Below, piece by piece: positions 34,802 to 64,000 of a DNA stretch of 64,000 bases (its first letter is position 1; each line of letters opens with the position of its first letter). Both the position numbers and the translations under genes were made by a program. Under the pieces are notes generated by a model, which saw nothing but the letters and a program-made list of their open reading frames with translations, was not told where the DNA came from and did not search any database. The stretch is from Candidatus Omnitrophota bacterium (GTDB taxonomy: Bacteria; Omnitrophota; Gorgyraeia; Zapsychrales; Zapsychraceae): positions 72,968 to 136,967 of the forward strand of contig JAHFGL010000004.1 of assembly GCA_023247445.1 (NCBI GenBank). The letters are read 5' to 3'.

Positions 34802-34927
34802 TGAAAAGCCATTGTAATATTAAAATTTATGGGTATCAATGAAATTGTTGTGCATGTATCTAACCCCTTGAGGTTTCGGATGTTTCTTTTCTGTTAAAAT
34901 TGAGATAAATTTTCATCGATTGATTGC

Positions 34928-34955
34928 TTGACAATTGAAGGTTCTTTTCTATAAT
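34928..34955 (+). promoter_or_regulatory. Near-consensus sigma70 promoter.
   Basis: TTGACA at 34928-33, a 16-nt spacer, then TATAAT at 34950-55. It lies inside the 5' part of the listed ORF 34935.., which argues that the real start is the downstream ATG at 34983. Confidence 0.55.
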
Positions 34956-34982
34956 GATGTTCATAAACTGAACATCACTGCC

Positions 34983-35567
34983 ATGCCACAAGAAACCCTA
35001 AACGAAAGAGAATTTGAACTTGTTAATATCATTGGCGCCAAGCTCGGCTCCAATCAGCGCGATTTGTCGCGCATTATGGATCTTTCTTTAGGGATGATCA
35101 ACATGCTCGTCCGCCGAATGATCGCCAAAGGCTATATCCGCATCAACCAGCTTAGTAAACGTAAAGTCGAATATCTCCTAACAACAAAAGGTTTTAGTGA
35201 AAAGACGCGTAAATCTGTTAAGTATACGCTTAAGACTATTGATTCCATTAGTCGTATCAAAATTCGACTTAAAGATGTTTTAAAGGAAGTTGTTCACAAA
35301 GACCAAATCAAAGAATTTATTATTTTAGGGAAGTCAGATTTTGCCTTTATTGTTGAAATGGTTTTAAGAGAATTAGATACACAGAATTATAAGATTTTGC
35401 ATGTTGAGGAGCCGCCATCCAAACAAAATGGGGCTTTACTTTTAATTTGTCGGGAAGGCTATGACGCGCTTAAAGGAGATCATGTGGTTAATGTGATCCA
35501 TGAGCTTGCGAAAGATTATCATTTCGCTGAATTTAAAACAGAAGGGGCTGGTAAAGGTGCAAGTTAA
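34983..35567 (+). CDS. Putative winged-helix (MarR/HTH-like) transcriptional regulator.
   Basis: The N-terminal EFELVNIIGAKLGSNQRDLSRIMDLSLGMINMLVRRMIAKGYIRI is a wHTH-like segment. The start is reassigned downstream of the consensus promoter. Confidence 0.45.
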   Translation: MPQETLNEREFELVNIIGAKLGSNQRDLSRIMDLSLGMINMLVRRMIAKGYIRINQLSKRKVEYLLTTKGFSEKTRKSVKYTLKTIDSISRIKIRLKDVLKEVVHKDQIKEFIILGKSDFAFIVEMVLRELDTQNYKILHVEEPPSKQNGALLLICREGYDALKGDHVVNVIHELAKDYHFAEFKTEGAGKGAS

Positions 35568-37362
35568 AAAGAGATTTGAAGATCTCAAGATTTTATTATT
35601 TTTCTTTCGCGAGCACAAGATAAGTGCTGGTTATGTTTTTTTGATGATGGTCCTTTCTAGTGTTTTTGAATCCGTTAATGTGGCGGCCCTTTATCCTGTC
35701 ATTAATTATGGTCTAAAGATGGATGGCGGCGGGCAAGGGCTCAAATGGCTTGAATTTGTGCTACATTCGTTCCGCTTTAATAATTTGTTTTTAGGATCTT
35801 GTTTACTTTTAATAGCGATTACGATGGTGGCTACTTCGTTAAAGATTTATTATCACTACTTGTCTAATAAGCTCATTATGCGGATCATTGCCGAGAATCA
35901 GAATAGTATTTTTCAGAAGCTCGCCTCTATGGAATATAAATATTTTGTTAAAAGTCAGCAAGGAAAGCTTATTTATGCCTCAACGGTTGCTCCAATAGGG
36001 ATTTCTTCTAATATTTTTTCTGCAGTCCGAAGTGCCAACTCTTTTGTCACCATTTTATTTTTGGCAACATTGATGATGTTTTTAACCTGGCAAGGCATGG
36101 TCTTTGTTATTGTTCTTGGAATTTTTTATATTTTCTTTGTCAGAAAAATTCTTAATCATTTTGTTCGTCAATTTTCACATTTAAGTGTCGAGGAAGATGA
36201 GAAAAAGAATATTATTCTCAATGAATTTATTAGTGGTATTAAGTCGATTAAGGCCTTTCATGTGGAATCTCTTTGGCAGGAGAGATTTTCTCAATCCGTT
36301 TTGCGCAGTGCCCAGTTTCGTTTTCAAGTTGTGCTTGGGCATGTTCTTCCTGACAGTTTTCTTAAGTTTATTTTTTTTAGCGGGATCGGTCTTATGGGAT
36401 TAGCGCTGGGCTTCTCTAATACAGGCAACATGATGAGTTTACTTCCGGCCTTGGGAACCTTTGCCATTGTCGCTAGCCGGATCATTCCCTATATCAACCT
36501 TTTTGGTAACGATATTGTTGCGGTCGCCCGTTACATGCCAGATATGAAAATTGTTTATGATCTTTTACACGAACAGATGGCAGAAAATTGGACAGGAACA
36601 AAAGCCCTCGGTCATTTCCAGAATAAGATTCAATTTCGAGATGTTTGGTTTAAATATGATGGGGCAGCAAATTTTTTATTTAAGGGACTAAACTTCTCGA
36701 TTGAAAAGGGAAAAGTCACCGCGGTTGTCGGACCATCAGGCGCTGGAAAATCTACGATTATTAATCTTCTTCTTAGCCTATTTTCAGTCGCAAAAGGAGA
36801 GATTTTATTGGATGGAATAAATATTAAAGAGTTTAGTCGTGAGTCTTATTTGCAAAAAGTTGGCTATATTTCGCAAGAGACATTTATTTTTAATGGCACG
36901 ATTCGCGATAATATTTGTTTTGGACTTAGTTATTCAGATGAAGAGATAATCGCCGCGGCTCAACTCGCCAATGCGCATGAATTTATTTTAGCTGCCGAGA
37001 AAGGGTATGACACGATTGTCGGTGATGCCGGGATTAAGCTTTCCGGTGGACAACGCCAGCGTCTCGCGATTGCTCGCGCCATGCTTCGCCGTCCAGAAAT
37101 TCTCATTTTGGATGAGGCAACGAGCTCTCTAGATAATGTTAGCGAACGACAAGTTCAACAAGCCATTAATAATATTGCTCATCGCACAACCGTTTTTCTT
37201 GTGGCTCATCGCCTTTCAACGGTTCAGAACGCTGATAAAATTGTTGTCTTAGAACATGGTCAGATTGCGGAAGAGGGAACGCATGAGCAATTGATAAAGA
37301 ATCGCCGGGCATATTTTCAACTTTATACAACGACGCAAATAGGGGATGAAATAAAAATATGA
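35557..37362 (+). CDS. ABC exporter with fused TMD-NBD, MsbA/lipid-glycan flippase-like.
   Basis: Six TM helices followed by an NBD with Walker A (GPSGAGKST), the signature LSGGQRQRLAIARA and Walker B (ILILDEAT). A GTG at 35557 is chosen as the start so that TM1 is retained. Confidence 0.8.
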   Translation: MQVKKRFEDLKILLFFFREHKISAGYVFLMMVLSSVFESVNVAALYPVINYGLKMDGGGQGLKWLEFVLHSFRFNNLFLGSCLLLIAITMVATSLKIYYHYLSNKLIMRIIAENQNSIFQKLASMEYKYFVKSQQGKLIYASTVAPIGISSNIFSAVRSANSFVTILFLATLMMFLTWQGMVFVIVLGIFYIFFVRKILNHFVRQFSHLSVEEDEKKNIILNEFISGIKSIKAFHVESLWQERFSQSVLRSAQFRFQVVLGHVLPDSFLKFIFFSGIGLMGLALGFSNTGNMMSLLPALGTFAIVASRIIPYINLFGNDIVAVARYMPDMKIVYDLLHEQMAENWTGTKALGHFQNKIQFRDVWFKYDGAANFLFKGLNFSIEKGKVTAVVGPSGAGKSTIINLLLSLFSVAKGEILLDGINIKEFSRESYLQKVGYISQETFIFNGTIRDNICFGLSYSDEEIIAAAQLANAHEFILAAEKGYDTIVGDAGIKLSGGQRQRLAIARAMLRRPEILILDEATSSLDNVSERQVQQAINNIAHRTTVFLVAHRLSTVQNADKIVVLEHGQIAEEGTHEQLIKNRRAYFQLYTTTQIGDEIKI

Positions 37363-38333
37363 AAACAGTGCTTATTACGGGAGCTGGAGGTTTTATTGGT
37401 TCTCATCTGACGGAATTATGTGTTGCGCGCGGACTTAAAGTCAGGGCCTTTGTTCGATATAACTCAATGAACAAGCGCGGCTGGTTAGAAGATTCAAAAT
37501 ATAAGGATGATATTGAATTTATATCGGGAGATATTAGGGATTATGATTCTGTTGTTAAAGCGATGAAAGGCTCTGAGGAGGTTTATCATCTGGCTGCTTT
37601 AATTGGGATTCCGTATTCCTATGTTTCGCCGCTGGCCTATATTAAAACGAATGTCGAGGGAACTTACAATGTGCTTGAGGCGGCCAAGGAACTTAATTTG
37701 AAAAAGATTTTAGTGACATCAACAAGTGAGACTTATGGAACAGCCCAATATGTTCCTATCGATGAAAAACATCCGGCCAATGGTCAATCTCCGTATGCGG
37801 CCACTAAGGTGGCGGCTGATCAATTAGCGCAAAGTTATTATTTATCGTTTGGCCTACCGGTTAAGATTATCCGTCCATTTAATACCTTTGGCCCACGCCA
37901 ATCGGCGCGCGCAATTATTCCCACGATTATCACTCAACTTCTAAACGATAAAAAACAACTGCGTTTAGGCAATACAAATCCTACACGCGATTTTACATTT
38001 GTTAAAGATACGGCGAGCGCATTTCTTGAAGTGGCCAAAGCCAAGGGTTTATATGCGGATGTGGTCAATGTTGGGATGAATGAAGAGATCTCGATTAAAG
38101 ATTTAGCGTACCTTATTGGAAAAATTTTAAAGAAACCTGTCGATATTGCAGAAGACAAGCAGAGAGTTCGGCGTAAGGGCACGGAAGTCGAGAGACTTCG
38201 TTGTCAAAACGCCAAGATTAGAAAAATGACAAATTGGAAACCGCGCTACAGCTTGGAAAAAGGTCTTGTTGAGACGATTGCGTTTATGAAAGATCAATTG
38301 AGTTTATATAAAGCAGATATTTATAACATTTAA
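37359..38333 (+). CDS. NAD-dependent epimerase/dehydratase, a candidate nucleotide-sugar 4,6-dehydratase (LegB/RmlB-like).
   Basis: ITGAGGFIGSHL Rossmann motif, TSTSETYG and YAATKVAADQL (YxxxK). It is the first gene of the nonulosonic acid cluster. Confidence 0.65.
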   Translation: MKTVLITGAGGFIGSHLTELCVARGLKVRAFVRYNSMNKRGWLEDSKYKDDIEFISGDIRDYDSVVKAMKGSEEVYHLAALIGIPYSYVSPLAYIKTNVEGTYNVLEAAKELNLKKILVTSTSETYGTAQYVPIDEKHPANGQSPYAATKVAADQLAQSYYLSFGLPVKIIRPFNTFGPRQSARAIIPTIITQLLNDKKQLRLGNTNPTRDFTFVKDTASAFLEVAKAKGLYADVVNVGMNEEISIKDLAYLIGKILKKPVDIAEDKQRVRRKGTEVERLRCQNAKIRKMTNWKPRYSLEKGLVETIAFMKDQLSLYKADIYNI

Positions 38334-38348
38334 TTAATTGTTTGGAGC

Positions 38349-39302
38349 ATGATGAAGAAAAAGAAAATTTTATTATTTGGATCAGGGTATATGGCCAATG
38401 AATATCTTAAGGTTCTTAAGGCCTTATCATGTGATGTTTTTATTATTGGACGCAACAGACAGAAAGTGAAAGCTTTGGCTGATTCCTATGGTTTTAAGGG
38501 TTGTGGCGGAGGCACCAGTGGGCTCAAGAATGTGGATTGCGGAGATTTTGATTGGGTCATTAATGCTGTTCCGGTGGATAAGTTGTTTGAAGTTACTTCA
38601 GCGTGCGTACAACATGGATTATCCAATATTTTGATTGAGAAGCCAGGGGCATTAAATCTCAATGAATTAAATGCATTAAAAAAGAAAGAAAAAAAAGGCA
38701 TCAATATTAGAGTTGCGTGCAACCGAAGATTCTATGGTTCGGTTCAGGCTCTTCGTGAACGGATTAAAGAAGATGGCGGCATCGTTGGATGCTTTTTTGA
38801 TTTTACGGATAGAGAAAAAGATATTTTCGAAGCGGCGAAGGGAAGTTCCTTTGTTGATCGGTGGGGCTGGGCTAATTCCATGCATGTGATTGACTTGGCA
38901 TTTCATTTGATTGGATTGCCGCAGCAGATAAAGACGTTTCGGGATGCTGGCTGGAAATTTCATCCTACAGGAAATGTTTTTACTGGCAGTGGACGCAGTG
39001 AAAAAAGTTTGTTTAGTTATTATTCGACATGGTCCGGAGGCGGCCGTTGGGCTGTTGAGATTTCAACACCAGAAGGCCGGTACAAACTTTCTCCGTTAGA
39101 AAAGTTGGCTTTTTGTAAGAAAAATCAGTTTAATTGGGAAGAAAAAGAATTTGCGATGGAACATGATACGCAATTTAAGCCCGGGCTTTATAAAATGGTT
39201 AACGAAGTCATATTAAATAACCGGCCAAATACGTTACCAACCTTGGATGAACAAATTAGACTTTATAAGGTTACTCAGAAAATTTTTGGTTATGAAAATT
39301 AA
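38349..39302 (+). CDS. Gfo/Idh/MocA-family oxidoreductase.
   Basis: An N-terminal Rossmann fold and the family's EKP motif (ILIEKPGA). Confidence 0.6.
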   Translation: MMKKKKILLFGSGYMANEYLKVLKALSCDVFIIGRNRQKVKALADSYGFKGCGGGTSGLKNVDCGDFDWVINAVPVDKLFEVTSACVQHGLSNILIEKPGALNLNELNALKKKEKKGINIRVACNRRFYGSVQALRERIKEDGGIVGCFFDFTDREKDIFEAAKGSSFVDRWGWANSMHVIDLAFHLIGLPQQIKTFRDAGWKFHPTGNVFTGSGRSEKSLFSYYSTWSGGGRWAVEISTPEGRYKLSPLEKLAFCKKNQFNWEEKEFAMEHDTQFKPGLYKMVNEVILNNRPNTLPTLDEQIRLYKVTQKIFGYEN

Positions 39303-40236
39303 TATCGTCATCATAGGTTTGGGCAATATTGGCAAACGACATTTGCAGGCAGTCAGCCGACTTTCCTATTGTTCTGAAATTCTAGGTTATGTTCTTAACT
39401 TGGAAGACAAGAAGGTGATTGCTGAGTTTTGTCAGAAAAATAATATTTCGACAGAAAATTTAAGATTGGTCACAAATTTTGATGATACCCTTAAGGCAAT
39501 TACAGAACGCACGATTGTGATCGTTTCCACAACCGCCAAAGGTCGGGTCAAAATCATAGAGCAGGTTTTAAAACATCGACCGTTAGCGATTATTGCCGAG
39601 AAACCCTTATGCCAAAATCCATCGGAATATGAACATTTGATCAATTTAGTTAAGGAATATAATATTCCAATCTACGGCAATTTTCCTAAACATATGTACC
39701 CTGTTTACCAGAAAATAAATCATTTGTTGAAGGCGGGTTCGATTACATCCTTTAATGCCATAACCTGGGGCGGGATGGCGTGCGCTGGTATCCATGCATT
39801 GGAACTGATGACTTGGCTTTTAGCTGTCAAAGATTACAAAATATTAAAAGCCGTTTGCCATAAAGAGTTTGCTTCCAAACGAGATGGGTTTATGGACTTT
39901 GCCGCTGATTTAGTTTTAGAAGTCAATGGCGGAATTGTCTGTTCATTGTCGGCATCGGAAGATAAAAAGTTAGAAATTTATGACATCGCCTCAGAAGAAA
40001 AAAAATATAGTGTTTGTGAATCTTCTGGAAAAATACTTGAGGTTAATAATAACGCAGAGTTCTTGGTTTCTGATCTTGAGATTCTTCATGTTAGTCAAAT
40101 TACTGACCAGATTGTTGATGATATTGTCAAAGGGGGCAAGGTCAGGCTTCCCGATGTTTATGAGTCCTATACTGCGCATAAGATATTATTTGAGTGCATG
40201 AAGTTATGTAATTTGGAGAGGCTTAATATCACATGA
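39292..40236 (+). CDS. Gfo/Idh/MocA-family oxidoreductase.
   Basis: MKINIVIIGLGNIGKRH Rossmann motif and IIAEKPLC (EKP motif). Start set at the ATG at 39292, which overlaps the upstream stop. Confidence 0.6.
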   Translation: MKINIVIIGLGNIGKRHLQAVSRLSYCSEILGYVLNLEDKKVIAEFCQKNNISTENLRLVTNFDDTLKAITERTIVIVSTTAKGRVKIIEQVLKHRPLAIIAEKPLCQNPSEYEHLINLVKEYNIPIYGNFPKHMYPVYQKINHLLKAGSITSFNAITWGGMACAGIHALELMTWLLAVKDYKILKAVCHKEFASKRDGFMDFAADLVLEVNGGIVCSLSASEDKKLEIYDIASEEKKYSVCESSGKILEVNNNAEFLVSDLEILHVSQITDQIVDDIVKGGKVRLPDVYESYTAHKILFECMKLCNLERLNIT

Positions 40237-41339
40237 AATGTTCAGTTGTTTTTGATGCCCCCAATATTGGTCGAGAAGAGAAAACTTCTTTGGTGCGTAT
40301 CATAAATACGGGATATGTTTCAACGGCTGGACATTGTGTGGCTGAGTTTGAAGAGAAATTTGCTGGATATTTTGGAATTAAAAAATCCGTTGCTGTCCAA
40401 AGTGGCACGGCAGCCATTCATATTGCTCTTTGTGAATTAGGAATTGGTCCAGGCGATGAGGTGATTGTCCCGGTTATGACATTTGTAGCGACGGTTAACC
40501 CGATTATCTATAACTATGCCAAACCTGTTTTTGTTGATGTTGATCCGGCCACATGGAACATTGATAGTTGTGCCATTGAAAATCATATAAGCAAAAAAAC
40601 AAAAGCCATTTTGCCGGTACATCTTTACGGAAATCCTTGCGCGATGGATCGTATTTTATCGATTGCTCGTAAACATAAATTATATGTTATTGAAGATGCG
40701 GCGGAGAGTTTGGGGGCAACATATAAAGGACGCTACACCGGAATCTTCGGAGATATTGGATGTTTTAGTTTTAATGGCAATAAAATTATTACCACCGGTA
40801 GCGGCGGAATGGTGGTTGGCCAAAACGCAAAACGGTTACAGCACATTAAATTTCTCGTGAATCAAGCCAAAGATCCCAAGAATAGTTTTTTTCACCCAGA
40901 GGTTGGTTACAACTATCGGATGACGAACCTTCAGGCCGCTTTAGGATTGGCCCAGATGGATAAGTTGAATGATTTTTTAGCAAAGAAAAGAAACTTTAAT
41001 AAATTGTACAGAAAATATTTATCAACTATCGATGGCATCGCTTTTCAAGAGAATTTGCCGACAGCAGAAAGTTCCTGGTGGTTAACGGGCATTGTTTTAA
41101 ATAAAACCAAAGATATTACGCGTATCCAACGAAAATTAATGGAGCAAGGCATTCCAACGCGCCGAAATTTTATGCCGATCACTGACTTTCCAGCCTATAA
41201 AAAATATAAAAAAGGCCGGTATCCTCAGGCGCAGTACATTTATAAACATGGTTTATGTTTGCCGGGTTCGACATTAAATTCTTTTAAGAATATTGAACAT
41301 GTTTGTCAGATATTAAAGAAAGTGGTTTCTAAGAATTAA
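40233..41339 (+). CDS. DegT/DnrJ/EryC1 family PLP-dependent sugar aminotransferase (LegC/PseC-like).
   Basis: 368 aa. The ...SGTAAIHIAL..., FSFNGNKIITTGSGGMV region contains the Lys that binds PLP. This is the aminotransferase class of nonulosonic acid pathways. Confidence 0.85.
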   Translation: MKCSVVFDAPNIGREEKTSLVRIINTGYVSTAGHCVAEFEEKFAGYFGIKKSVAVQSGTAAIHIALCELGIGPGDEVIVPVMTFVATVNPIIYNYAKPVFVDVDPATWNIDSCAIENHISKKTKAILPVHLYGNPCAMDRILSIARKHKLYVIEDAAESLGATYKGRYTGIFGDIGCFSFNGNKIITTGSGGMVVGQNAKRLQHIKFLVNQAKDPKNSFFHPEVGYNYRMTNLQAALGLAQMDKLNDFLAKKRNFNKLYRKYLSTIDGIAFQENLPTAESSWWLTGIVLNKTKDITRIQRKLMEQGIPTRRNFMPITDFPAYKKYKKGRYPQAQYIYKHGLCLPGSTLNSFKNIEHVCQILKKVVSKN

Positions 41340-41978
41340 ATGAGACAAAAAGAAATTATTGTTATTGGCGGCGGTGGTCATGCCAAGGTTGTCATTAGCC
41401 TTTTGTTGGCGGATGACAATTATAAAGTGTTGGGCTATACCGATAAATCTGATCGTGGTCCAATTTTAGGTGTTAAATTTTTGGGCAATGATGAAATCCT
41501 GCCGAAACTTAAAAGTAAATATCCCAGACTTTCAGCCGCCATTGGCGTTGGAAAGGTCACGAAAGAAAATATCCGGATCGAGGTTAGAAAGAAAATATTA
41601 AAGAATGGTTTTGAGTTGCCCGTAATTATATCCAAGAAGGCATTGATTCATAAAGACGCTGTTATTGGCGAAGGTACGGTTATTAGTGATGGCGCCATTA
41701 TCCAAGTGGGGGCAAAAATAGGAGCATGCGCCATTATTAATACGGGAAGTATTGTTGAACACGATTGTGTTATTGGAGACTTTGTTCATGTGGCCAGCGG
41801 CGCGACAGTTTCTGGCGGCGTGACAATTGGTAAAAACACAATGGTTGGCGCGGGTTCCACCATTATTCAATATAAGAAAATTGGTCATGATTGTTTGATT
41901 GCCGCGGGAGCGGTTGTTGTTGATGATTGTCAATCAAATGGTTTCTATGCCGGCGTTCCGGCAGTTTTGAAAAAATAA
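41340..41978 (+). CDS. NeuD/PglD/LegH-family sugar N-acetyltransferase (hexapeptide repeats).
   Basis: IIVIGGGGHAKVV N-terminal Rossmann-like motif plus left-handed beta-helix hexapeptide repeats. Confidence 0.8.
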   Translation: MRQKEIIVIGGGGHAKVVISLLLADDNYKVLGYTDKSDRGPILGVKFLGNDEILPKLKSKYPRLSAAIGVGKVTKENIRIEVRKKILKNGFELPVIISKKALIHKDAVIGEGTVISDGAIIQVGAKIGACAIINTGSIVEHDCVIGDFVHVASGATVSGGVTIGKNTMVGAGSTIIQYKKIGHDCLIAAGAVVVDDCQSNGFYAGVPAVLKK

Positions 41979-41980
41979 AT

Positions 41981-44160: not shown

Positions 44161-44163
44161 GCT

Positions 44164-47669: not shown

Positions 47670-47676
47670 ACAGATT

Positions 47677-49239: not shown

Positions 49240-49318
49240 ATGCTTCCGCGTTAAGCTTCGCAGGAATTCCTACGAAGCTCAAACATGAAAATATTTGAGC
49301 GAAGTAGAAAGGAGTCGT

Positions 49319-50521: not shown

Positions 50522-50685
50522 AGGGCTGAAACCTCTCTAAATTTCGTAGGTTACGGTAGGTTTTCTTATCGAGAAATGAAACGATTTTTAAGAAAAATAA
50601 CCTATGTTTTATGATGAAAAAATAGTACAATTAGGGTCAATAATTATATATAAAAGTATCAAATCTTATTTTAAGGGGTAGACCT

Positions 50686-53063: not shown

Positions 53064-53080
53064 AATTGTGAGAAGAAAAT

Positions 53081-58378: not shown

Positions 58379-58419
58379 AAAAGAAAATAAACAATATAGT
58401 TAAAAAGGGGGATTGAAGT

Positions 58420-59193
58420 ATGCTCAAAACAAATTATTTTACCAAGTCGGAGTTAGAAGCGTATGACAGGGATGGATTTATCCTTGTTAAAAACTTTTTT
58501 GATGCCGAGAAATTAAAACACGTTATTAAGATGGTGGATGAATTAATCGCGATGCCTGATAGGGTTGGATTCATTTGGAAGTTTTACGAAGATTTATCAT
58601 CAAATGGAGCAGGTAAAATTCTAGATCGTATTGAGAATTATACTTTTTTGGTTGATGGATGGAAGGGGCTTATCGCTGAAGGAGAATTGCGAGATCGTTC
58701 TTCGGAGCTTTTTGGTGAAGACGCAATTCTATTTAAGGATAAAATTAATTTTAAATATCCTGGTGGACGAGGATTTAAACCTCATCAAGATATGCATGGT
58801 GATTGGCAGATTTATGCCGAGAAATTTTTGACAGCATCAATTGCCTTAGATCGATGCACTATTGAAAATGGATGTCTTTATGTTTCCGCAGGTGATCATA
58901 AAAGAGGCCTTTTTGGAAAAATGTGGGAACCAATTCCTGATGAGTTATTAAAGAAAGAAAATATTAAGTGGATTCCATTAGAAATGGAAGCGGGAGATGT
59001 GGCCTTTTTTGATGCTTATACGCCTCATTATTCAGAGCGTAATTTAAGTAAAATCCGTCGAGCCATGATCCATTTAACTTATAATAATAAAACCGCTGGC
59101 GATTTTTATCAAAAGCATCTTGATGATAAAAGAGTGAACTATCCTCCGGATATCGAGCGAAAAGAAGGTAAAAGCTATGTTTATCGTGTCTAA
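58420..59193 (+). CDS. Phytanoyl-CoA dioxygenase (PhyH) family Fe(II)/2-oxoglutarate oxygenase.
   Basis: 257 aa. An HxD...H facial-triad arrangement (HQDMHGDW ... TPHYSERN) and a PhyH-like N-terminal region (DGFILVKNFF). Confidence 0.65.
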   Translation: MLKTNYFTKSELEAYDRDGFILVKNFFDAEKLKHVIKMVDELIAMPDRVGFIWKFYEDLSSNGAGKILDRIENYTFLVDGWKGLIAEGELRDRSSELFGEDAILFKDKINFKYPGGRGFKPHQDMHGDWQIYAEKFLTASIALDRCTIENGCLYVSAGDHKRGLFGKMWEPIPDELLKKENIKWIPLEMEAGDVAFFDAYTPHYSERNLSKIRRAMIHLTYNNKTAGDFYQKHLDDKRVNYPPDIERKEGKSYVYRV

Positions 59194-59208
59194 AACATAA
59201 CTTTTAAT

Positions 59209-60327
59209 ATGAAAGTAAGAAGAAACATACTTCTTAATCCCGGTCCAGCGACAACGAGTGATAGTGTTAAGAAGGCCCTCATCGTTGCGGATATTTGCCC
59301 GCGGGAAAAAGAATTCGTCAAGGTTGTTGATGGTGTCCGTCTAGATTTAGTCAAGATAGTTAAAGGCGATGGGCAGTATGCCTGTATTCTCTTGGCTGGA
59401 TCTGGAACGGCCGCCATGGATGCCTGCATTAATTCAGTTGCCCCACCCAAAAGTAGGATTGCGATTATCAACAATGGTGCCTATGGTAAGCGCTTAATTG
59501 ACATTGCAAAGTCTTATTCTCTAGATTATGTCGAAATACAATCAGCTTGGGAAAAGCCGCTCGATCCAAGTGTCGTTGAAGCAGTGCTTAAAAATGATCC
59601 ATCAATACGTTGTTTAGCGATGGTCCATCATGAGACAACAACCGGCCTGTTGAATCCATTAAAAGAGGTGGGAGCGATTGCGAAAAATTATAATTGCACA
59701 TTTATTGTCGATGCCATTTCTAGTTTTGCGGGTATTCCAATTGACATAAAAAAATGTCATGTCGATTTTTTGATATCGACCGCTAATAAGTGCATTCAGG
59801 GAATGCCTGGACTGGCTTTTATTATCTGCCACCAACCGGAATTAGCAAAGATTAGAAATTATCCTCGCCGTTCTTTTTATTTAAGTTTGTTTGATGAATA
59901 TAGTTATTATCAAAAAACAGGAGAGACGCGCTTTACCCCTCCGGTACAGGTGGTATATGCCCTGCGGCAGGCGATTAAGGAATATTCAAAGGAAGGCGCC
60001 ACGGGGCGTTATAAGCGTTATACGGCCAATTGGAAGGTCTTGCGCGATGGATTAGAGAGGATGGGATTTAAGTTTTTATTAAGGAAAGAAGATGAGTCAC
60101 ATATTTTAATGACCATGATGGAGCCGAATCATCCCAAATATAATTTTGATAAAATGCATGATCTTTTGTACAAGAAAGGTTTTACGATTTATCCCGGGAA
60201 GATTGGCCAGCTCAAAACATTTCGATTAGCGAATATGGGGGACATTAACCCAGCAGATATTAAACGTTTTTTACAAGAGTTAAAGAATGTATTAAAGAAA
60301 ATGGAAGTTTATTTAAAGAATGACTAA
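59209..60327 (+). CDS. 2-aminoethylphosphonate:pyruvate aminotransferase (class V aminotransferase; PhnW/AepZ-like).
   Basis: ILLNPGPATTSDSVKKAL...ACILLAGSGTAAMDA...STANKCIQGMPGLAFI places the PLP Lys in the xNKC motif. It belongs to the serine-pyruvate/AEP transaminase family and sits in the cluster with pepM and ppd. Confidence 0.75.
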   Translation: MKVRRNILLNPGPATTSDSVKKALIVADICPREKEFVKVVDGVRLDLVKIVKGDGQYACILLAGSGTAAMDACINSVAPPKSRIAIINNGAYGKRLIDIAKSYSLDYVEIQSAWEKPLDPSVVEAVLKNDPSIRCLAMVHHETTTGLLNPLKEVGAIAKNYNCTFIVDAISSFAGIPIDIKKCHVDFLISTANKCIQGMPGLAFIICHQPELAKIRNYPRRSFYLSLFDEYSYYQKTGETRFTPPVQVVYALRQAIKEYSKEGATGRYKRYTANWKVLRDGLERMGFKFLLRKEDESHILMTMMEPNHPKYNFDKMHDLLYKKGFTIYPGKIGQLKTFRLANMGDINPADIKRFLQELKNVLKKMEVYLKND

Positions 60328-62425
60328 GGATCAAAATAAAAATGAGTCTCCCTATGTGTGCTGGGTTGATCACGTAAGTTTTTTAGCTCTGGCCAGAATC
60401 CTTTTCTTAAGGCTACAGTATCCTTTCACAGCCATCCGTTACATCACGATCAGTCTCCAGGTTAAGAAAATCGTCGAGCGTTTCTTAAAATCACTCAAAT
60501 TTGAAAATGTGTATTTATTCGCGAATAATGTATCTCCTCACGAAGAGATGGCGATTACCAATAAGACATATGACGATACGGTTTCTTTCATCGATCAAGT
60601 CATCAAACCTTCAGAATCTGTTACGCCAATGCTTAGTTTTATTGACGAGCGTTACAACAAAGAAACAATTGATTTCTTTATGAAGCAAGAAATTGCCTTT
60701 GAGATCGATGTCCCTTTAAGGCTTTTTAACTGTATTATTTTTCAAAGTCAAAAGACCAGAGGAACAGCAGCATCTAAAAATATCGTTCTTATCAAAGATA
60801 ATTATTGGATAGATTATTTTAGGTCTTTTTATGCTTCACATGTTATCCAGGTGAGTGCGTATCCAAATATTAAAGAATTTATCAACAAAATTTATGTTTT
60901 CTTTAAATTAATCGTTGAGATTTTTTTAAATGGAATTCTTTTAGTGTTGGGTAAGAAAATAAATGATCAGGAGTTTAATGCCTCGGCTAAAATTGCTGTC
61001 TTACATGCGCAAGGAGTAAATCTAGAGAAAAAGACTGATTATTTCTGGTTTCCCGGTTCTGGCATAAATTCAGAGCAGATTCTTCTGTACTTTAAATATC
61101 CTACCAGACCACCCAGTCCAGAGGTTTTAGAGTTTGTGAATCGTAATAAAATTCCTTGGATTAACCTTTTGCCATGGAAAATTGGACATAAGAAATTATT
61201 GGGCGCAACGGCAGAATTCAATCGTTTCCCTGACAAGGGGTATCTTAAATTATTAATGCAGACACTCAAAACAAGCATCCGGATATTGTTTTTTTGTTTA
61301 ATCAATCGCCGACGAAAACTGTTTGGTTTTTGGAAATTTTTAACAGCGCTGTTGGCCACGATCAATTTTTTTGAAGCTTTTTTTAAGACTTACAATATCA
61401 AAGTCCATTTTGCCATGCATGATGGAGGGCGTGATATGGTGGCGGCCAATATTGCCATTGAGGTCGTTGGTGGAATTGATTTGTGCACGCACTGGTCTAG
61501 TTATGACACTACGATGTTAACGATGGGCAAAAGTCACGATGTTTGTTTTACCTGGGGCCCTTTTTTTACTAAGCATTTTTTTAGTAAGCCCTACTATTCA
61601 TTTAAAAATTTTGTTTATAGTGGCTATCTTTTTGATCGATCATTTGAATCATGTCAGAAAAAATCTAAGAAATATCGGCAACAACTTTTAAATGAAGGGG
61701 CAGAGTTTATTATTTGTCTATTTGACCAAAATAATCCCATCGAACGGCCTTTATGGAATCAGGAAGTTGAGAAATTATATCGTCGTCTCCTTGAGCTTGT
61801 CATTAAAGATAAAAAGTTGGGTCTTATTATCAAACCTAAAAAAATAAATCCAAAGGTCAAGCTATCGGCGATTGCTTCATTACTTCAAGAAGCTGAAACG
61901 ACCAAACGGTGTTTTGTTTTGATGGGAGATACTTTCCCTAATGAGGCCTCGCAAGCTTCTGATTTAGCTATCGGAGTATCGGTTGCCAGTACACCAACCG
62001 TCGAGGCTGCTTTGGCTGGGGCGAAGTGCATTACCTTTGATTTGGAAAGTCATTACGAGCATCCGTTTTATAAAGAGGGTCATCATAAGATTGTTTTTGA
62101 TGATTTGGATGAAATGTTTGAAACCATCGCCCGTTTTCGTTTAGAGCCATTATCTAGAAAAGGATTTGGCGATTATTCTTTTATTCTGCCTGAGATTGAT
62201 CCTTTCCGTGATCATAAAGCCTCAGAACGTATTGGGATTTATATCCGTGTTTTGCTGGAAGAGTTTGTTAAAGGGCATAATAAAGCAAGGGTTATCAACG
62301 TTGCCAACGAGTTTTATCGCCGTCAATATGGTCAAGATAAAGTGCTTGAGAGAAGCTTAAGCAGTGATGCAACGAGTGTTGAAAACATGGTGGATTCAAT
62401 TGTGTTGTCCAAAAGAGGAATTTAA
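60320..62425 (+). CDS. Large hypothetical protein of 701 aa, a candidate glycosyl/phospho(no)transferase.
   Basis: No firm motif. The C-terminal third (GDTFPNEASQASDLAIGVSVASTPTVEAALAGAKCITFD) looks like the last Rossmann unit of GT-B or TagF/KpsC-type transferases. It is translationally coupled to the AEP transaminase. Confidence 0.35.
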   Translation: MTKDQNKNESPYVCWVDHVSFLALARILFLRLQYPFTAIRYITISLQVKKIVERFLKSLKFENVYLFANNVSPHEEMAITNKTYDDTVSFIDQVIKPSESVTPMLSFIDERYNKETIDFFMKQEIAFEIDVPLRLFNCIIFQSQKTRGTAASKNIVLIKDNYWIDYFRSFYASHVIQVSAYPNIKEFINKIYVFFKLIVEIFLNGILLVLGKKINDQEFNASAKIAVLHAQGVNLEKKTDYFWFPGSGINSEQILLYFKYPTRPPSPEVLEFVNRNKIPWINLLPWKIGHKKLLGATAEFNRFPDKGYLKLLMQTLKTSIRILFFCLINRRRKLFGFWKFLTALLATINFFEAFFKTYNIKVHFAMHDGGRDMVAANIAIEVVGGIDLCTHWSSYDTTMLTMGKSHDVCFTWGPFFTKHFFSKPYYSFKNFVYSGYLFDRSFESCQKKSKKYRQQLLNEGAEFIICLFDQNNPIERPLWNQEVEKLYRRLLELVIKDKKLGLIIKPKKINPKVKLSAIASLLQEAETTKRCFVLMGDTFPNEASQASDLAIGVSVASTPTVEAALAGAKCITFDLESHYEHPFYKEGHHKIVFDDLDEMFETIARFRLEPLSRKGFGDYSFILPEIDPFRDHKASERIGIYIRVLLEEFVKGHNKARVINVANEFYRRQYGQDKVLERSLSSDATSVENMVDSIVLSKRGI

Positions 62426-62427
62426 TC

Positions 62428-63519
62428 GTGCAAGTCAAAGATGATGCGGCATTATTAAAGATGATGATGGAGGATTTGAAAAAAGCGCCGGAGCTTTATC
62501 GACCAACCAATTATTGGCAATGTTATGAAGAAAAATTTGCTGCTGAATTATTTAAGGTTGGGTTACATGATTTTCGTCGTCGAAATAATTCCGTTCTTTC
62601 GAGCTTCGCTGGAACAGATTTAGCCGAGAAATATGCAATTGATCTTTTGGCGAGCCGGTTATTTAACAATCGCTATACACGTCTGATTCCGTTTTGGCAT
62701 AAATTTCTTTCTTTTTGGAATTCTATACTTAACAAGCTTCTGCCCATTACAACACCATATAACATAACAACCGAGGATATTCAGCACTTGGCGTATTCGG
62801 TTGCCCGTTTAAAGGCTGAGAAGACAAACGCAAAACCTATTGATCAATTTGACACCTCATTAGCGGGTAATCCCGAAGATGTTTTTGTTATTAATGACAA
62901 GGCGTATACAACGCATCACTTTGATTACTATCTTAATTACGTCTACTGCACCAAATTTCTTGATTTTAGCAAAGTTAAATTGTTTGTAGAGTTAGGCAGC
63001 GGCGCTGGACGGCAGATTGAGGTTTTAAAGAAACTATATCCGCAGATGACATTTTGTCTTTATGACATTCCACCACAGATTTATGTTTGTGAACAATATT
63101 TGAGTTCGGTTTTTCCTGGGCAGGTGGTTTCTTATCGTCAGACACGAGGGATGAAAACAGTCCCATCGGGTGACGGAAAGATTTATATCTTTGGCAGCTG
63201 GGATTTTGAAATGGTTAAGAATATGCCGGTTGATCTATTCTGGAATTGTGCCAGCTTTCAAGAAATGGAACCGGAGATTGTGGCAAATTATCTTTCCTTC
63301 GTGAATAAAAGCGCGGCCAATGTGTTTTTATTAGAGGCCACCCGTGGCCAACATGTGGCCAAGCAAAAAGGTGAGCCAGGGGTTCTGCGTAAGACAACAT
63401 TTGATGATTACAAACAAGGGCTTAAGGATTTTAAGTTAGTTGATTTGTCGCCTGTTGTTTCAATCCCAAAGATGCATTCAGAAAACGATCACAGCATATC
63501 TTTCTGGAAAAAAAGTTAA
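62428..63519 (+). CDS. Hypothetical protein with a putative class I SAM-methyltransferase fold.
   Basis: A glycine-rich VELGSGAGRQIEVLKKLYPQMTFCLYDIPPQI resembles an AdoMet-binding motif I/II. Otherwise unknown. Confidence 0.35.
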   Translation: MQVKDDAALLKMMMEDLKKAPELYRPTNYWQCYEEKFAAELFKVGLHDFRRRNNSVLSSFAGTDLAEKYAIDLLASRLFNNRYTRLIPFWHKFLSFWNSILNKLLPITTPYNITTEDIQHLAYSVARLKAEKTNAKPIDQFDTSLAGNPEDVFVINDKAYTTHHFDYYLNYVYCTKFLDFSKVKLFVELGSGAGRQIEVLKKLYPQMTFCLYDIPPQIYVCEQYLSSVFPGQVVSYRQTRGMKTVPSGDGKIYIFGSWDFEMVKNMPVDLFWNCASFQEMEPEIVANYLSFVNKSAANVFLLEATRGQHVAKQKGEPGVLRKTTFDDYKQGLKDFKLVDLSPVVSIPKMHSENDHSISFWKKS

Positions 63520-63520
63520 T

Positions 63521-64000
63521 ATGAAGATTGTCCTTTTAGAATTTATTGATGAAGCCAAGGCCTTGATGGACAGCTATGGGAGAGATTTCTTTACCCAAAA
63601 AGATATCAAAGTCATTTGTCTTCATCCGAAGGTGCATGCGTATTTTAAAAAAGAAGGGATTGAGGCGCTTGATACAATTCCATTTTTAAGTAATGAAGCT
63701 CAGCATCGGATTATTCGTAAGAGTGAAGATCTTACGTTGAAATTAATGGCTGAACTAAATTTGGTCGATGGATTTAATATCCGCCAAGGATATCGAGAGG
63801 TTTGCATCCATCACCTGCGTTTATATCTGAATCATTTTCTTTGGATATTAGAAGTTCTAAACGGCGTTCGCGAAAAATATAAGATTGAACAAGTGTATGC
63901 GTGTGTGCCAAGTAACCGTCAATCGATGTATTTACGAAAAGGATATATTCAGAAAACAGAACGGTTTTTAGGGTTACTCGCCAAAGATTTTTGTGACAAG
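63521..64000 (+). CDS. Hypothetical protein, 3'-partial and not in the ORF track.
   Basis: ATG at 63521, 1 nt after the previous stop. The frame is open for 160 codons to the window end (MKIVLLEFIDEAKALMDSYGRDFF...). Confidence 0.45.
   Translation, partial: MKIVLLEFIDEAKALMDSYGRDFFTQKDIKVICLHPKVHAYFKKEGIEALDTIPFLSNEAQHRIIRKSEDLTLKLMAELNLVDGFNIRQGYREVCIHHLRLYLNHFLWILEVLNGVREKYKIEQVYACVPSNRQSMYLRKGYIQKTERFLGLLAKDFCDK

Follow-up and report, generated by a model that had tools for sequence, protein, structure and literature searches.

A same-strand array of nonulosonic acid and phosphonate genes in an Omnitrophota bacterium that may encode a phosphonate-tailored cell-surface glycoconjugate

When the genes for a legionaminic-acid-type sugar and those for a phosphonate lie in one unbroken series, do they build one molecule or two? 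The question is raised by a 29-kb array from an uncultured Omnitrophota bacterium, in which 27 genes follow one another on the + strand from position 34983 to the end of the window (the whole 64,000-nucleotide stretch of DNA that was analysed), which cuts the last gene at 63521–64000. The answer that we favor, at a probability of roughly 55%, is a modular cell-surface locus for a Leg5Am-type glycoconjugate, predicted to be tailored with a CMP-activated, probably methylated/hydroxylated derivative of 2-aminoethylphosphonate (AEP). The first part of the array (block 1) opens with a MarR-type regulator and an ABC exporter, which are followed by the full gene set of a Leg-type pathway (LegB/C/H/I/G/F, PtmE/F/A) and by WbuX/Y/Z; it is listed here with the sites at its borders.

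34928–34955, + strand: sigma-70-type promoter-like site (TTGACA-16 nt-TATAAT, 12/12 consensus match), 5′ of the regulator gene
34983–35567, + strand: MarR-family (EPS-associated type) regulator (TIGR04176 MarR_EPS, E 9.8e-12, 44.9 bits, cut-off 88)
35557–37362, + strand: ABC exporter half-transporter, TMD+NBD (HepA 368 bits, cut-off 725; MsbA 338, cut-off 602; PglK 248, cut-off 1000)
37359–38333, + strand: LegB-type NAD-dependent NDP-GlcNAc 4,6-dehydratase (TIGR04180, 460.4 bits, cut-off 475, E 2e-138)
38349–39302 and 39292–40236, + strand: two Gfo/Idh/MocA-family oxidoreductases (PF01408, E 9e-8 and 2e-11)
40233–41339, + strand: LegC-type aminotransferase (TIGR04181, 407.9 bits, cut-off 420)
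41340–41978, + strand: NeuD/LegH-type N-acetyltransferase (TIGR03570, 200.8 bits, cut-off 160.8)
41981–42997, + strand: NeuB/LegI-type nonulosonic acid synthase (TIGR03569, 432.2 bits, cut-off 399.65)
42979–44160, + strand: NeuC/LegG-type hydrolysing NDP-sugar 2-epimerase (TIGR03568, 444.5 bits, cut-off 235.9)
44164–45234, + strand: PtmE-like CBS-domain sugar-1-phosphate nucleotidyltransferase, GDP-sugar route (N-terminal KpsF/GutQ CBS-region matches; nucleotidyltransferase matches at residues 129–350)
45231–46175, + strand: PtmF-like Gfo/Idh/MocA oxidoreductase (NF040723 and iolG-type matches; syntenic in L022)
46168–46878, + strand: CMP-nonulosonic acid synthetase, LegF/PseF/NeuA class (PseF TIGR03584, 128 bits, cut-off 205.7)
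46875–47669, + strand: PtmA-like short-chain dehydrogenase (NF006619, 227 bits, cut-off 255; PtmA NF050062, 151.5 bits)
47647–48555, + strand: WbuZ/HisF-like protein (WbuZ, 274 bits, cut-off 299.7)
48556–49239, + strand: HisH/WbuY glutaminase (HisH, 203 bits, cut-off 105.4)
49319–50521, + strand: WbuX N-acetyl-sugar amidotransferase (357 bits, cut-off 203.2)
50511–50534, + strand: weak hairpin, overlapping the stop codon of WbuX
50522–50685, + strand: AT-rich 164-nt spacer from WbuX to the first radical-SAM gene, marking where the Leg5Am block gives way to the phosphonate cassette

The gene identities proposed in the sequence-only reading hold for the ABC half-transporter, LegB, LegC, NeuD/LegH, NeuB/LegI, NeuC/LegG, the CMP-nonulosonic acid (NulO) synthetase, the PtmE-, PtmF-, and PtmA-like proteins, WbuZ, HisH, and WbuX, as well as for the PepM, Ppd, and AEP transaminase of the second block. 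Several Leg enzymes narrowly miss their curated cut-offs (LegB 460 vs 475, LegC 408 vs 420; LegF 128 vs 206), and the synthase scores 303 bits with the PseI model, under the PseI cut-off. Homologs of the PtmE-like protein (62% identity) and the CMP-NulO synthetase (59%) occur in a locus of a Planctomycetales metagenome-assembled genome (L022/L084), and the synthetase has further homologs in L091, L093, and L094 (53–56%). The WbuZ, HisH/WbuY, and WbuX genes (47647–50521) form a putative acetamidino-forming trio, and block 1 as a whole would yield a CMP-activated 5,7-diamino legionaminic-type nonulosonic acid with an acetamidino group (Leg5Am7Ac-like). The two extra oxidoreductases (38349–40236), inserted between LegB and LegC, may redirect the stereochemistry of the sugar. 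Calling the exporter MsbA-like is right at the family level only, as its 338 bits fall well short of the MsbA cut-off of 602 (HepA, 368 vs 725); with about 6–7 hydrophobic segments, it probably acts as the flippase/exporter of a lipid-linked product.

The array is tightly packed. As had been claimed, the + strand carries every gene-size open reading frame from the ABC exporter (GTG at 35557) to 64000, and the minus-strand frames of at least 80 aa in this interval are only 82–118 aa long and all nested in + strand genes. With gene starts picked by HMM coverage and ribosome-binding sites, 12–13 junctions overlap by 4–23 nt (14 with the MarR/ABC overlap), so the earlier count of at least 14 was slightly generous and essentially right; seven of the overlaps are ATGA, and the gap is 17 nt or less at 21 of 25 junctions. 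The array does not begin at the exporter, where its start had been placed, but one gene earlier, at the ATG (34983) of the MarR-type gene, which shares 11 nt with the ABC gene and would regulate the array from its head. Just upstream lies the only 12/12 promoter-like site, by consensus match, in 34000–53999; transcription would most likely start at this strong site (34928) and then read through. A terminator scan of 34000–64000 placed no + strand terminator-like site between genes, all + strand sites being intragenic, and the counts of terminator-like sites there were 11 against 18.6 ± 3.8 expected and 14 against 13.0 ± 3.7.

An intrinsic terminator had been proposed after WbuX, at about 50510–50550. 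A hairpin is indeed present at 50511–50534 (stem AGGUUUCA/UGAAACCU, loop 8 nt), but it is no better than chance (−8.9 kcal/mol, z = −1.28, with equally good folds in 24 of 200 shuffles), the sequence 3′ of it (CUCUAAAUUUCG) has no U tract, and the scan of 34000–64000 does not call it; we therefore rejected it as a credible terminator. The spacer into which the hairpin extends is the only long gap in the array and the likeliest site of an internal promoter, so that an additional start may lie here; its best promoter-like site matches 9/12 (50588–50615), and an Rfam search of the spacer returned no family (best E 0.84). The gap at the same junction in L022 is about 280 nt.

Beyond the spacer, the second block is a phosphonate cassette.

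50686–52314, + strand: B12-binding radical-SAM methyltransferase 1, divergent clade of the Sden_1168 family (NF038361, 597.5 bits, cut-off 575)
52311–53063, + strand: CDP-alcohol phosphotransferase-family (CAPT) membrane enzyme (PF01066, E 5e-10)
53081–54757, + strand: PEP phosphomutase (PepM) with a C-terminal MobA-like (PntC-type) nucleotidyltransferase domain (PF13714, E 2e-53; PF12804, E 9e-10)
54754–55524, + strand: second, stand-alone nucleotidyltransferase, PntC-like (IPCT-type, 89 bits; weak Sden_1164-family NF038362 match, 47.9 bits, cut-off 300)
55518–56681, + strand: phosphonopyruvate decarboxylase, Ppd (TIGR03297, 424.4 bits, cut-off 312.5)
56678–58378, + strand: B12-binding radical-SAM methyltransferase 2, Sden_1168 family proper (NF038361, 764.9 bits, cut-off 575)
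58420–59193, + strand: PhyH-family Fe(II)/2-oxoglutarate dioxygenase, PhnY*-like (PF05721, E 4e-26)
59209–60327, + strand: 2-aminoethylphosphonate aminotransferase, AEPT (TIGR03301, 445.8 bits, cut-off 360.8)

Diagnostic motifs were found in PepM (EDKxxxxxNS, as EDKLFPKVNS at residue 110), in CAPT (an intact DYVDGRVAR...G...D...D at residue 97, in a protein with hydrophobic segments), and in both radical-SAM proteins (CxxxCxxC, as CPIGCSFC at residue 283 and CPVGCTFC at residue 292), which are 51% identical to each other. The PepM fusion scores 318.1 bits with TIGR02320 (cut-off 319.55) and matches PDB 5unc at E 7e-93. Together, PepM, Ppd, and the transaminase would make AEP, and the fused and stand-alone nucleotidyltransferases (26% identical) would convert the phosphonate to its CMP form; PntC enzymes are known to produce CMP-AEP for cell-surface tailoring (PMC6697681). 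The sequence-only reading expected an AEP-like substituent; plain AEP is probably wrong, because the cassette adds a PhyH dioxygenase and the two B12 radical-SAM methylases. These enzymes would probably C-methylate and hydroxylate AEP, and the analogy with Fom1/Fom3 makes a cytidylylated intermediate their most plausible substrate; the closest ortholog of methylase 1 (74%, L018) is located with a Fom1-type CyTase-PepM fusion, and others occur in L022 (67%) and L021 (66%). The dioxygenase, a likely phosphonate hydroxylase, scores 139 bits with the methylphosphonate hydroxylase model NF052437 (cut-off 500), and in the PDB it comes closest to ectoine hydroxylase and PHYHD1. CAPT, with syntenic homologs in L022/L084 (42%) and L086 (35%), would move the phosphonyl group from the CMP-phosphonate onto an alcohol acceptor, which we predict to be a hydroxyl of the nascent glycoconjugate.

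Three genes follow the cassette.

60320–62425, + strand: 701-aa uncharacterised GT-B-fold protein (AF2 model and Foldseek)
62428–63519, + strand: NanM-type putative sugar O-methyltransferase (TIGR04371, 228.6 bits, cut-off 44; PF00891)
63521–64000, + strand: second GT-B family protein, N-terminal 160 aa of ~655 aa

The 701-aa protein has no Pfam or NCBIfam match, and its AF2 model (pLDDT 83, pTM 0.84) retrieves GT-B enzymes from the PDB with Foldseek at E 4e-6 to 1e-4 (UDP-GlcNAc 2-epimerases, HepE, polysialyltransferase 5wc6, TarL 8va1). Its homologs were always within NulO loci among those compared, and it is probably the NulO transferase of the locus. The truncated product is 47–53% identical to the N-termini of 652–661-aa proteins adjoining 701-aa homologs in L084–L087, and an hhalign comparison of the two families (probability 75%, E 2.5e-5, 430 columns) suggests that they are distant paralogs. 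Both would transfer nonulosonic acid(s), with the NanM-type enzyme O-methylating a sugar and the ABC half-transporter, whose homologs (33–35% identity) adjoin the 701-aa homolog in L086, L089, and L091, flipping or exporting the lipid-linked product.

That the two blocks serve one glycoconjugate, as had been proposed, gains comparative support. The window itself is of Omnitrophota origin, to judge from MetH, whose best named matches all come from that phylum (68–77% identity). The Planctomycetales genome, from a different phylum, has the same gene order at 40–68% identity, running LegH-LegI-LegG-PtmE-PtmF-LegF-PtmA-WbuZ-WbuY-WbuX and then B12-radical-SAM, CDP-OH transferase, PepM-nucleotidyltransferase, nucleotidyltransferase, Ppd, AEPT, and the 701-aa protein. 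Phosphonate genes adjoin the 701-aa homolog within NulO loci in four further loci (L086, L087, L089, L091). In some relatives nothing lies between WbuX and the GT-B gene (3 nt separate the two in L093, and they are also adjacent in L094 and L091); in others this slot is filled by a phosphonate cassette or by a sulfation cassette of sulfotransferase, ATP sulfurylase, and APS kinase (L085, L090). Such alternation of phosphonate- and sulfate-donor machinery speaks for a tailoring role of both on the glycan of the flanking genes.

The main rival to the glycoconjugate reading is a pair of products, in which CAPT moves a (hydroxy/methyl)-AEP head group from CMP-phosphonate to diacylglycerol and block 1 makes a Leg5Am7Ac-type glycan, on different molecules and perhaps co-regulated in envelope remodelling. 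We consider this possible but unlikely; the lipid destination stays live because the transferase found here belongs to the CDP-alcohol phosphotransferases, carries an intact signature, and is embedded in the membrane, and enzymes of this family, the ethanolaminephosphotransferases, make the AEP lipids of eukaryotes. The spacer also parts the two blocks, and Sden_1168-family methylases occur with PepM-Ppd-AEPT and without NulO genes in Streptomyces and Shewanella. CDP-alcohol phosphotransferases are a hallmark of clusters predicted to make phosphonolipids (Li & Horsman, PMC8942020), and the cassette shares the PepM-PntC fusion, Ppd, AEPT, a 2OG-type oxygenase, a second PntC, and the CDP-OH transferase with the seven-gene core of the 'Burkholderiales_CDP-OH' clusters (Group 1), for which phosphonolipids and not phosphonoglycans are predicted (PMC8942020). 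However, only one of that core's two phospholipid genes is present, and CAPT enzymes can take soluble polyol acceptors, a CDP-inositol:inositol-phosphate transferase being among the best NCBIfam matches. A lipid also fits poorly with a cassette inserted exactly where WbuX would meet the GT-B gene, its direct neighbor in L093, L094, and L091; with the use of the same insertion point in another phylum (L022/L084); and with a slot that in L085 and L090 is taken up by sulfation genes, the sulfotransferase among them being a soluble tailoring enzyme.

The two destinations could also be combined, with a CAPT-made phosphonolipid as the anchor whose hydroxylated head group is NulO-glycosylated by the two GT-B proteins and flipped by the MsbA/HepA-like exporter. 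Such a product would make sense of the lipid-type transferase, of the lipid-flippase-like half-transporter and its recurrence beside the 701-aa homolog, and of the PhyH hydroxylase, which would create the acceptor hydroxyl; it would also account for the array's having no polyprenyl-phosphate initiating transferase or Wzx/Wzy (nor was a Maf-type transferase found in it). We hold it doubtful, as it is purely inferential and without precedent, and 701-aa homologs occur in loci without phosphonate genes (L093, L094, L085, L090), so a phosphonolipid is not their universal acceptor. Chance adjacency, with block 2 making a diffusible phosphonate or phosphinate beside a glycan locus, is very improbable given the synteny across phyla and a membrane CAPT with two PntC-type activating enzymes, which point to conjugation and not release. 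Members of the Sden_1168 family are frequent in Streptomyces, Sorangium, and Shewanella, in clusters resembling small-molecule pathways, and the family's curated NCBIfam name is 'P-methyltransferase'; against this, profile matches gave no H-phosphinate route genes (no CPEP mutase or PhpF-type set), the PhpK model scores 93–94 bits (93.8 for methylase 2) against a cut-off of 600, and no gene of the cassette was identified as a peptide ligase, a resistance determinant, or a dedicated exporter of small molecules.

The glycoconjugate reading remains the one that we prefer. Several points count against it: the phosphonoglycan loci characterised to date go with LicD-like transferases (PMC6697681), of which the Omnitrophota array has none; the array also shows no initiating transferase, Wzx/Wzy, or Maf-type transferase; and some Leg enzymes score under their cut-offs. 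We found no searchable paper that describes a glycoconjugate of the predicted type. The recurrence in a distant phylum of a locus with NulO and phosphonate genes, two GT-B proteins, and an ABC exporter predicts such a type of cell-surface glycoconjugate.

All genes from the ABC exporter to the window end lie on the + strand, as the sequence-only reading had stated; in the ORF listing, minus-strand ORFs of at least 80 aa amounted only to frames of 82–118 aa, each nested in + strand genes. Start codons were picked by HMM coverage together with an RBS-like sequence upstream, and with these starts 12–13 of the 25 junctions in this range overlap, by 4–23 nt. Seven are ATGA junctions: ABC/LegB, Gfo2/LegC (Gfo2 being the second of two oxidoreductase genes), PtmE/PtmF, LegF/PtmA, rSAM1/CAPT (radical-SAM and CDP-alcohol phosphotransferase genes), PepM/NT (PEP mutase and nucleotidyltransferase), and Ppd/rSAM2. 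At least 14 overlapping junctions had been claimed, so that the tight packing stands at a slightly lower count, to which the junction between a MarR-type regulator gene and the ABC gene adds one more. As a result of this overlap, the array starts one gene upstream of the start first proposed, where the following features are found.

34928–34955, promoter-like site, a perfect TTGACA-16-TATAAT ahead of the MarR-type gene
34983–35567, + strand, MarR-type regulator gene, overlapping the ABC gene by 11 nt

A scan called no + strand terminator-like site in an intergenic position, in agreement with the statement that none precedes the hairpin after WbuX, and the counts of terminator-like sites were at or below shuffle expectation (11 versus 18.6 ± 3.8 and 14 versus 13.0 ± 3.7). 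The hairpin itself, which had been read as an intrinsic terminator at 50510–50550, is present at 50511–50534 but is weak when a Rho-independent terminator is taken as a stable GC-rich stem-loop with a U tract directly after it: the 8-bp stem holds 3 G-C pairs, 24 of 200 shuffles fold equally well (−8.9 kcal/mol, z −1.28), the tail (CUCUAAAUUUCG) has no U tract, and the scan left the site uncalled. It stands at the start of the sole long gap in the array, the 164-nt spacer at 50522–50685, in which no known RNA family was found with Rfam (best E 0.84) and no unusual fold was detected (z −0.62). With the terminator excepted, the original observation is right in essence.

The first part of the array encodes, in order, an ABC half-transporter, LegB, two Gfo/Idh/MocA oxidoreductases, LegC, LegH, LegI, LegG, PtmE, PtmF, a CMP-nonulosonic acid (NulO) synthetase, PtmA, WbuZ, HisH, and WbuX. 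The NeuD/LegH acetyltransferase (TIGR03570, 200.8 bits, cut-off 160.8), the NeuC/LegG hydrolysing 2-epimerase (TIGR03568, 444.5 bits, cut-off 235.9), and the NeuB/LegI NulO synthase (TIGR03569, 432.2 bits, cut-off 399.65) all score above their thresholds, the last with only 303 bits to PseI, below the PseI cut-off of 340. The LegB 4,6-dehydratase (TIGR04180, 460.4 bits, cut-off 475) and the LegC aminotransferase (TIGR04181, 407.9 bits, cut-off 420) fall slightly under theirs, these models being their best matches by far. Candidates for PtmE, PtmF, and PtmA have the fitting architectures (CBS plus NTP transferase, Gfo/Idh/MocA, and SDR, respectively), while the PtmA-like SDR (NF050062, 151 bits versus 350) and the CMP-NulO synthetase (PseF model, 128 bits versus 205.7) are matched at the family level only. 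The claim of a complete legionaminic-acid-type (Leg) pathway is supported at the family level: all nine roles and three amidotransferase components have counterparts in a contiguous run. Judged from these matches, the block would be a complete Leg-type pathway that proceeds through GDP-GlcNAc and is equipped to form a 5-acetamidino group.

This run has the same nine roles and WbuZ/Y/X-type components as the known Leg/Ptm pathway but differs from it in the two extra Gfo/Idh/MocA oxidoreductases between LegB and LegC, in several scores slightly under equivalog cut-offs, in having neither Maf-type flagellin transferases nor O-antigen genes, and in its host, an uncultured Omnitrophota bacterium. 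The two extra oxidoreductases (38349–40236) could alter the stereochemistry of the sugar, D-glycero-D-galacto or otherwise. A flagellin glycosylation island was considered and rejected, there being no Maf/DUF115 or flagellar genes among the scanned window ORFs. The exporter had been called MsbA-like, which is correct for a half-transporter of that broad family and incorrect for the MsbA equivalog (TIGR02203, 337.9 versus 602; NF008381, 308 versus 867). Its best match is HepA (368 versus a cut-off of 725), and since HepA, MsbA, and PglK all lie far under their cut-offs, the protein is best described by its matches as a generic type-I ABC exporter.

Downstream of the spacer, the phosphonate cassette comprises rSAM1, the CDP-alcohol phosphotransferase (CAPT), a PEP mutase fused to a PF12804 nucleotidyltransferase domain (residues 301–418), a second nucleotidyltransferase, Ppd, rSAM2, a dioxygenase of the PhyH family that weakly matches the PhnY* type, and a 2-aminoethylphosphonate (AEP) transaminase (AEPT). 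The stand-alone enzyme is located as follows.

54754–55524, + strand, second stand-alone nucleotidyltransferase

The PEP mutase carries EDKLFPKVNS at residue 110, an instance of the EDKxxxxxNS motif, and matches the PDB PEP mutase 5unc at E 7e-93; Ppd (424 bits, cut-off 312.5) and AEPT (446 bits, cut-off 360.8) complete a true PepM-Ppd-AEPT core for AEP biosynthesis. PF12804 domains both fused and adjacent to PepM point to CMP-phosphonate activation of the PntC type, with AEP or a derivative as the predicted substrate; this assignment and that of the AEP core are grounded in families of well-established function and in the work of Rice et al. 2019 (PMC6697681). The CAPT signature motif is intact. 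After the cassette come genes for a 701-aa protein and a NanM-type sugar O-methyltransferase, and the first 160 codons of a ~655-aa partner protein.

Both radical-SAM enzymes (51% identical, each with a CxxxCxxC core motif) score above the cut-off of 575 bits for NF038361, the Sden_1168 family, with 597.5 bits for rSAM1 and 764.9 bits for rSAM2, and PF02310 and PF04055 were found on their homologs. The PhpK-type model TIGR04479 gave 92.6 and 93.8 bits versus a cut-off of 600, which places neither in that family, and family searches of the cluster found no CPEP mutase and no phosphonoformate genes for an H-phosphinate route. P-methylation to a phosphinate was therefore rejected as the default, and the family name "P-methyltransferase" looks over-specific, as the clusters appear to encode AEP-type phosphonates. 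The Fom1/Fom3 analogy makes methylation at carbon, on a phosphonate in cytidylylated form, the more plausible reaction, and in line with this the family member P0081 bears the Fom3 KEGG name "phosphonoacetaldehyde methylase" (a JGI label) and the closest rSAM1 ortholog shares its locus with a CyTase-PepM fusion of the Fom1 type, along with a TagF-like transferase and a PhyH protein. That ortholog (74% identity) lies in locus L018 (8043–21188) of the MAG "Cyanobacteria bacterium SZAS LIN-3," where the cytidylyltransferase-PepM (PF01467) is accompanied by Ppd, a TagF-like CDP-glycerol glycerophosphotransferase-family protein, a TylF O-methyltransferase, PhyH, and a Mur-ligase-like protein, a gene set that suggests a different, teichoic-acid-like way to attach a methylated phosphonate. 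Three loci from uncultured bacteria (L031, L033, and L035) carry three tandem B12 radical-SAM paralogs, 33–35% identical to the window enzymes.

In the fosfomycin pathway, Fom1 is a cytidylyltransferase-PepM fusion and Fom3 is a B12 radical-SAM enzyme that C-methylates CMP-2-hydroxyethylphosphonate. The window likewise combines a PepM-nucleotidyltransferase fusion and B12-binding radical-SAM methylases in one cluster, but its fusion is C-terminal and of PF12804 type, as opposed to N-terminal PF01467, it has neither an epoxidase (Fom4) nor a PnAA reductase, and it has an AEPT, from which we conclude that this is not a fosfomycin pathway.

Related loci were collected by scanning one genome per species with a profile of the radical-SAM family, followed by tblastn with all 27 window proteins, and loci with a homolog of the 701-aa protein were gathered from exact-protein contexts and by scanning metagenomes. 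In Streptomyces, Kitasatospora, and Shewanella loci, as in the Sden_1161–1168 type locus, PepM-nucleotidyltransferase, Ppd, AEPT, and the radical-SAM enzyme occur without NulO genes. The window has a near gene-by-gene counterpart in one Planctomycetales MAG (L022, extended as L084), at 40–68% identity and in the order LegH, LegI, LegG, PtmE, PtmF, LegF, PtmA, WbuZ, WbuY, and WbuX, then rSAM1, CAPT, a class-I methyltransferase, PepM-nucleotidyltransferase, a second B12 radical-SAM enzyme, nucleotidyltransferase, Ppd, AEPT, and the 701-aa protein. All loci with a 701-aa homolog and enough flank are NulO loci with WbuX/Y/Z and a CMP-NulO synthetase, and most also have a second NulO pathway and the ~655-aa partner.

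What varies among these loci is the slot between WbuX and the 701-aa gene. It is occupied exactly by the ~9.8-kb phosphonate cassette in the window and in L022, while in one locus (L093) the WbuX stop lies 3 nt ahead of the 701-aa homolog, and the two genes are likewise adjacent in L094 and L091. Phosphonate genes adjoin the 701-aa homolog in L084, L086, L087, and L089 and lie nearby in L091. In an Omnitrophica MAG (L085, 6298–10000) and in a metagenome contig (L090, 6263–9959), the slot holds a sulfotransferase, a 726-aa fusion of a pyruvate-kinase domain with ATP-sulfurylase, and an APS kinase; this content predicts sulfated NulO glycoconjugates. In L089 both kinds occur, phosphonate genes to one side and genes for sulfate activation to the opposite side. 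A slot that is empty, phosphonate-filled, or sulfate-filled from locus to locus suggests that the cassette modifies what its neighbors make, and this comparative inference is the strongest argument available for such a role.

An AlphaFold2 model of the 701-aa protein, built with 12 homologs (pLDDT 83, pTM 0.84), contains two Rossmann-like domains matching GT-B structures. The C-terminal two-thirds align in Foldseek with UDP-GlcNAc 2-epimerases, HepE, a bacterial polysialyltransferase, and TarL, with probability 1.00 to many GT-B enzymes, E values of 4e-6 to 1e-4, and target TM-scores of 0.5–0.6. At the sequence level the protein has no match to a PDB chain and no local Pfam or NCBIfam family, and profiles of the 701-aa and 655-aa proteins gave nothing significant versus PDB sequences. 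The window's last ORF is the N-terminus of the ~655-aa partner (47–53% identity), whose family is a distant relative of the 701-aa family (hhalign probability 75%, E 2.5e-5). A word-indexed search with 12 matches had made the 701-aa family seem very rare, a view overturned by an exhaustive HMM search that recovered 2035 cluster representatives at E ≤ 1e-3 and 1013 at E ≤ 1e-30; small numbers are confined to the close clade. The members sampled were, without exception, unnamed proteins from uncultured bacteria, and paralogs carry the precomputed Pfam label PF27878 "PFTS_polysacc," for which the searchable literature held nothing relevant. The protein thus has the GT-B fold and Foldseek matches in common with bacterial GT-B sialyl- and polysialyltransferases and TagF/TarL-type polymerases, and its gene, in every locus with enough flank, stands beside CMP-NulO synthetase genes; it differs from both in its identity of 8–14% to the structural matches and in an N-terminal half that forms an extra domain. 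From the model and this context, we infer that the 701-aa and ~655-aa proteins are glycosyl (NulO) transferases of these loci. A TagF-like role as CMP-phosphonate transferases seems less likely, because the 701-aa family is also present in loci without phosphonate genes.

Taken together, we favor a phosphonate-tailored NulO glycoconjugate as the product of the locus, with a probability of roughly 0.55, and the glycoconjugate interpretation of the sequence-only reading is plausible, with comparative support. AEP on surface glycans has precedent, as Bacteroides fragilis polysaccharide B bears AEP. PntC-dependent phosphonoglycan tailoring has been described in Treponema denticola, Atopobium, and Olsenella (Rice et al. 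2019, PMC6697681); those loci and, by prediction, the window have in common AEP formation by PepM-Ppd-AEPT, CMP-AEP formation through PF12804 nucleotidyltransferases that are often fused to PepM, and decoration of the cell surface, but the former work with LicD-like phosphotransferases or ordinary glycosyltransferases, and none has been described with a NulO pathway, B12 radical-SAM methylases, or a CAPT in a NulO locus.

The acceptor of the CAPT is the main uncertainty, and for this reason two lipid destinations were kept as rivals to the glycoconjugate. The core of the cassette closely resembles that of Burkholderiales_CDP-OH or Group 1 clusters, the phosphonolipid-type ppm neighbourhoods in the grouping of Yu et al. 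2013 as given by Li & Horsman 2022 (PMC8942020), which are predicted, and have never been shown, to make 1-hydroxy-AEP phosphonolipids; the products of the Burkholderia Group 1 clusters themselves have never been characterised (PMC8942020). Six of the roles in the seven-gene Group 1 core (Ppm-PntC, Ppd, AEPT, a 2OG/Fe oxygenase, a second PntC, and two phospholipid-biosynthesis genes) are found in the window, namely the Ppm-PntC fusion, Ppd, AEPT, the 2OG/Fe(II) oxygenase, the second PntC, and CAPT, the last as the only phospholipid-type gene. The window differs in that this core is embedded in a NulO locus, contains two B12 radical-SAM methylases, and is followed by GT-B proteins. With the slot comparison tying the cassette to its neighbors, a separate phosphonolipid, made apart from the NulO glycan, is a serious but clearly weaker candidate, and a NulO glycolipid anchored on a phosphonolipid is improbable.

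A more specific form of the glycoconjugate reading, which we offer as speculative, is that the product belongs to a new class of anionic surface glycoconjugate, in which a Leg5Am7Ac-type (oligo)polymer assembled by two GT-B NulO transferases bears a branched phosphonate installed by CAPT from the exchangeable slot. The phosphonate would be AEP with one or two C-methyl groups, added to a cytidylylated intermediate by the two B12 radical-SAM enzymes, and with a hydroxyl group introduced by PhyH, and it would be esterified to the NulO polymer. For this, CAPT would have been repurposed from lipid to glycan chemistry, the two previously uncharacterised GT-B families would be NulO transferases, and the slot would serve as an "anionic tailoring" site, open to phosphonate or sulfate, in Omnitrophota, Planctomycetota, and other uncultured lineages.

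Upstream of the array, which uses SAM and methylcobalamin, several genes share a methyl-cycle and B12 theme. A TonB-dependent receptor gene (12785–14800) is immediately preceded by a cobalamin riboswitch (RF00174, 56.7 bits, E 2e-11), in a region (12567–17534) that also encodes a BtuF-like periplasmic binding protein, an ABC ATPase, and a FecCD permease and is likely a B12 uptake operon, ~35 kb upstream of the two B12 radical-SAM genes. The window also encodes a B12-dependent MetH (5603–9289), whose named best relatives are all Candidatus Omnitrophota MAGs (68–77% identity), and a methylenetetrahydrofolate reductase (27605–28477, − strand). The riboswitch, the TonB/BtuFCD-like transport genes, and these two enzymes fit a cell that needs B12 for two radical-SAM enzymes. 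A 239-aa protein (4776–5495) has a C-terminal PEP-CTERM sorting motif (E 5e-6), which hints at an exosortase system and fits the weak EPS-associated MarR match of the first gene of the array, a family linked to systems of this kind. Just ahead of the array, a small, separate, mixed-strand glycan cluster (28567–34178), with genes for an NAD-dependent epimerase, a GT2, an 8-segment membrane protein (− strand), a polyprenyl-phosphate-sugar-synthase-like GT2 with AglJ/PpgS-type matches (− strand), and a 10-segment membrane protein without family match, may be a periplasmic glycosylation module. Two large ORFs have only faint matches, one of 1517 aa (27–4580) to a GT1 domain at residues 545–699 and one of 1430 aa (22480–26772) to NHL and He_PIG repeats, the latter flanked by YceI-like periplasmic lipid/polyisoprenoid-binding proteins (21346–21945 and 26981–27604).

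In the full-text literature searchable without a subscription, we found no description of a combined NulO and phosphonate locus or glycan, in Omnitrophota or elsewhere. The components are all of known kinds; what is new is their combination and its recurrence across phyla, the exchangeable phosphonate/sulfate slot, and the link with two uncharacterised GT-B families and two B12 radical-SAM enzymes. Phosphonates form a large and poorly attributed share of the organic phosphorus in the environment, and roughly half of the ppm clusters in bacteria are regarded as serving to modify the cell surface with structures that are unknown (PMC8942020). For widespread uncultured phyla, the locus provides a concrete structural prediction, namely that a conjugate of a sialic-acid-like sugar bears a phosphonate, along with a candidate transferase for moving CMP-phosphonates onto acceptors, candidates for the function of the Sden_1168 B12 radical-SAM family, now labelled "P-methyltransferase" without evidence, and candidate NulO transferases beyond the Maf and sialyltransferase families already known. 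The exchange of phosphonate and sulfate genes in the slot points to a general means by which these bacteria would adjust the charge of their surface and how well it resists phosphatases, sulfatases, and sialidases. A host-dependent lifestyle has been proposed for Omnitrophota, and surface tuning through this slot may bear on it.
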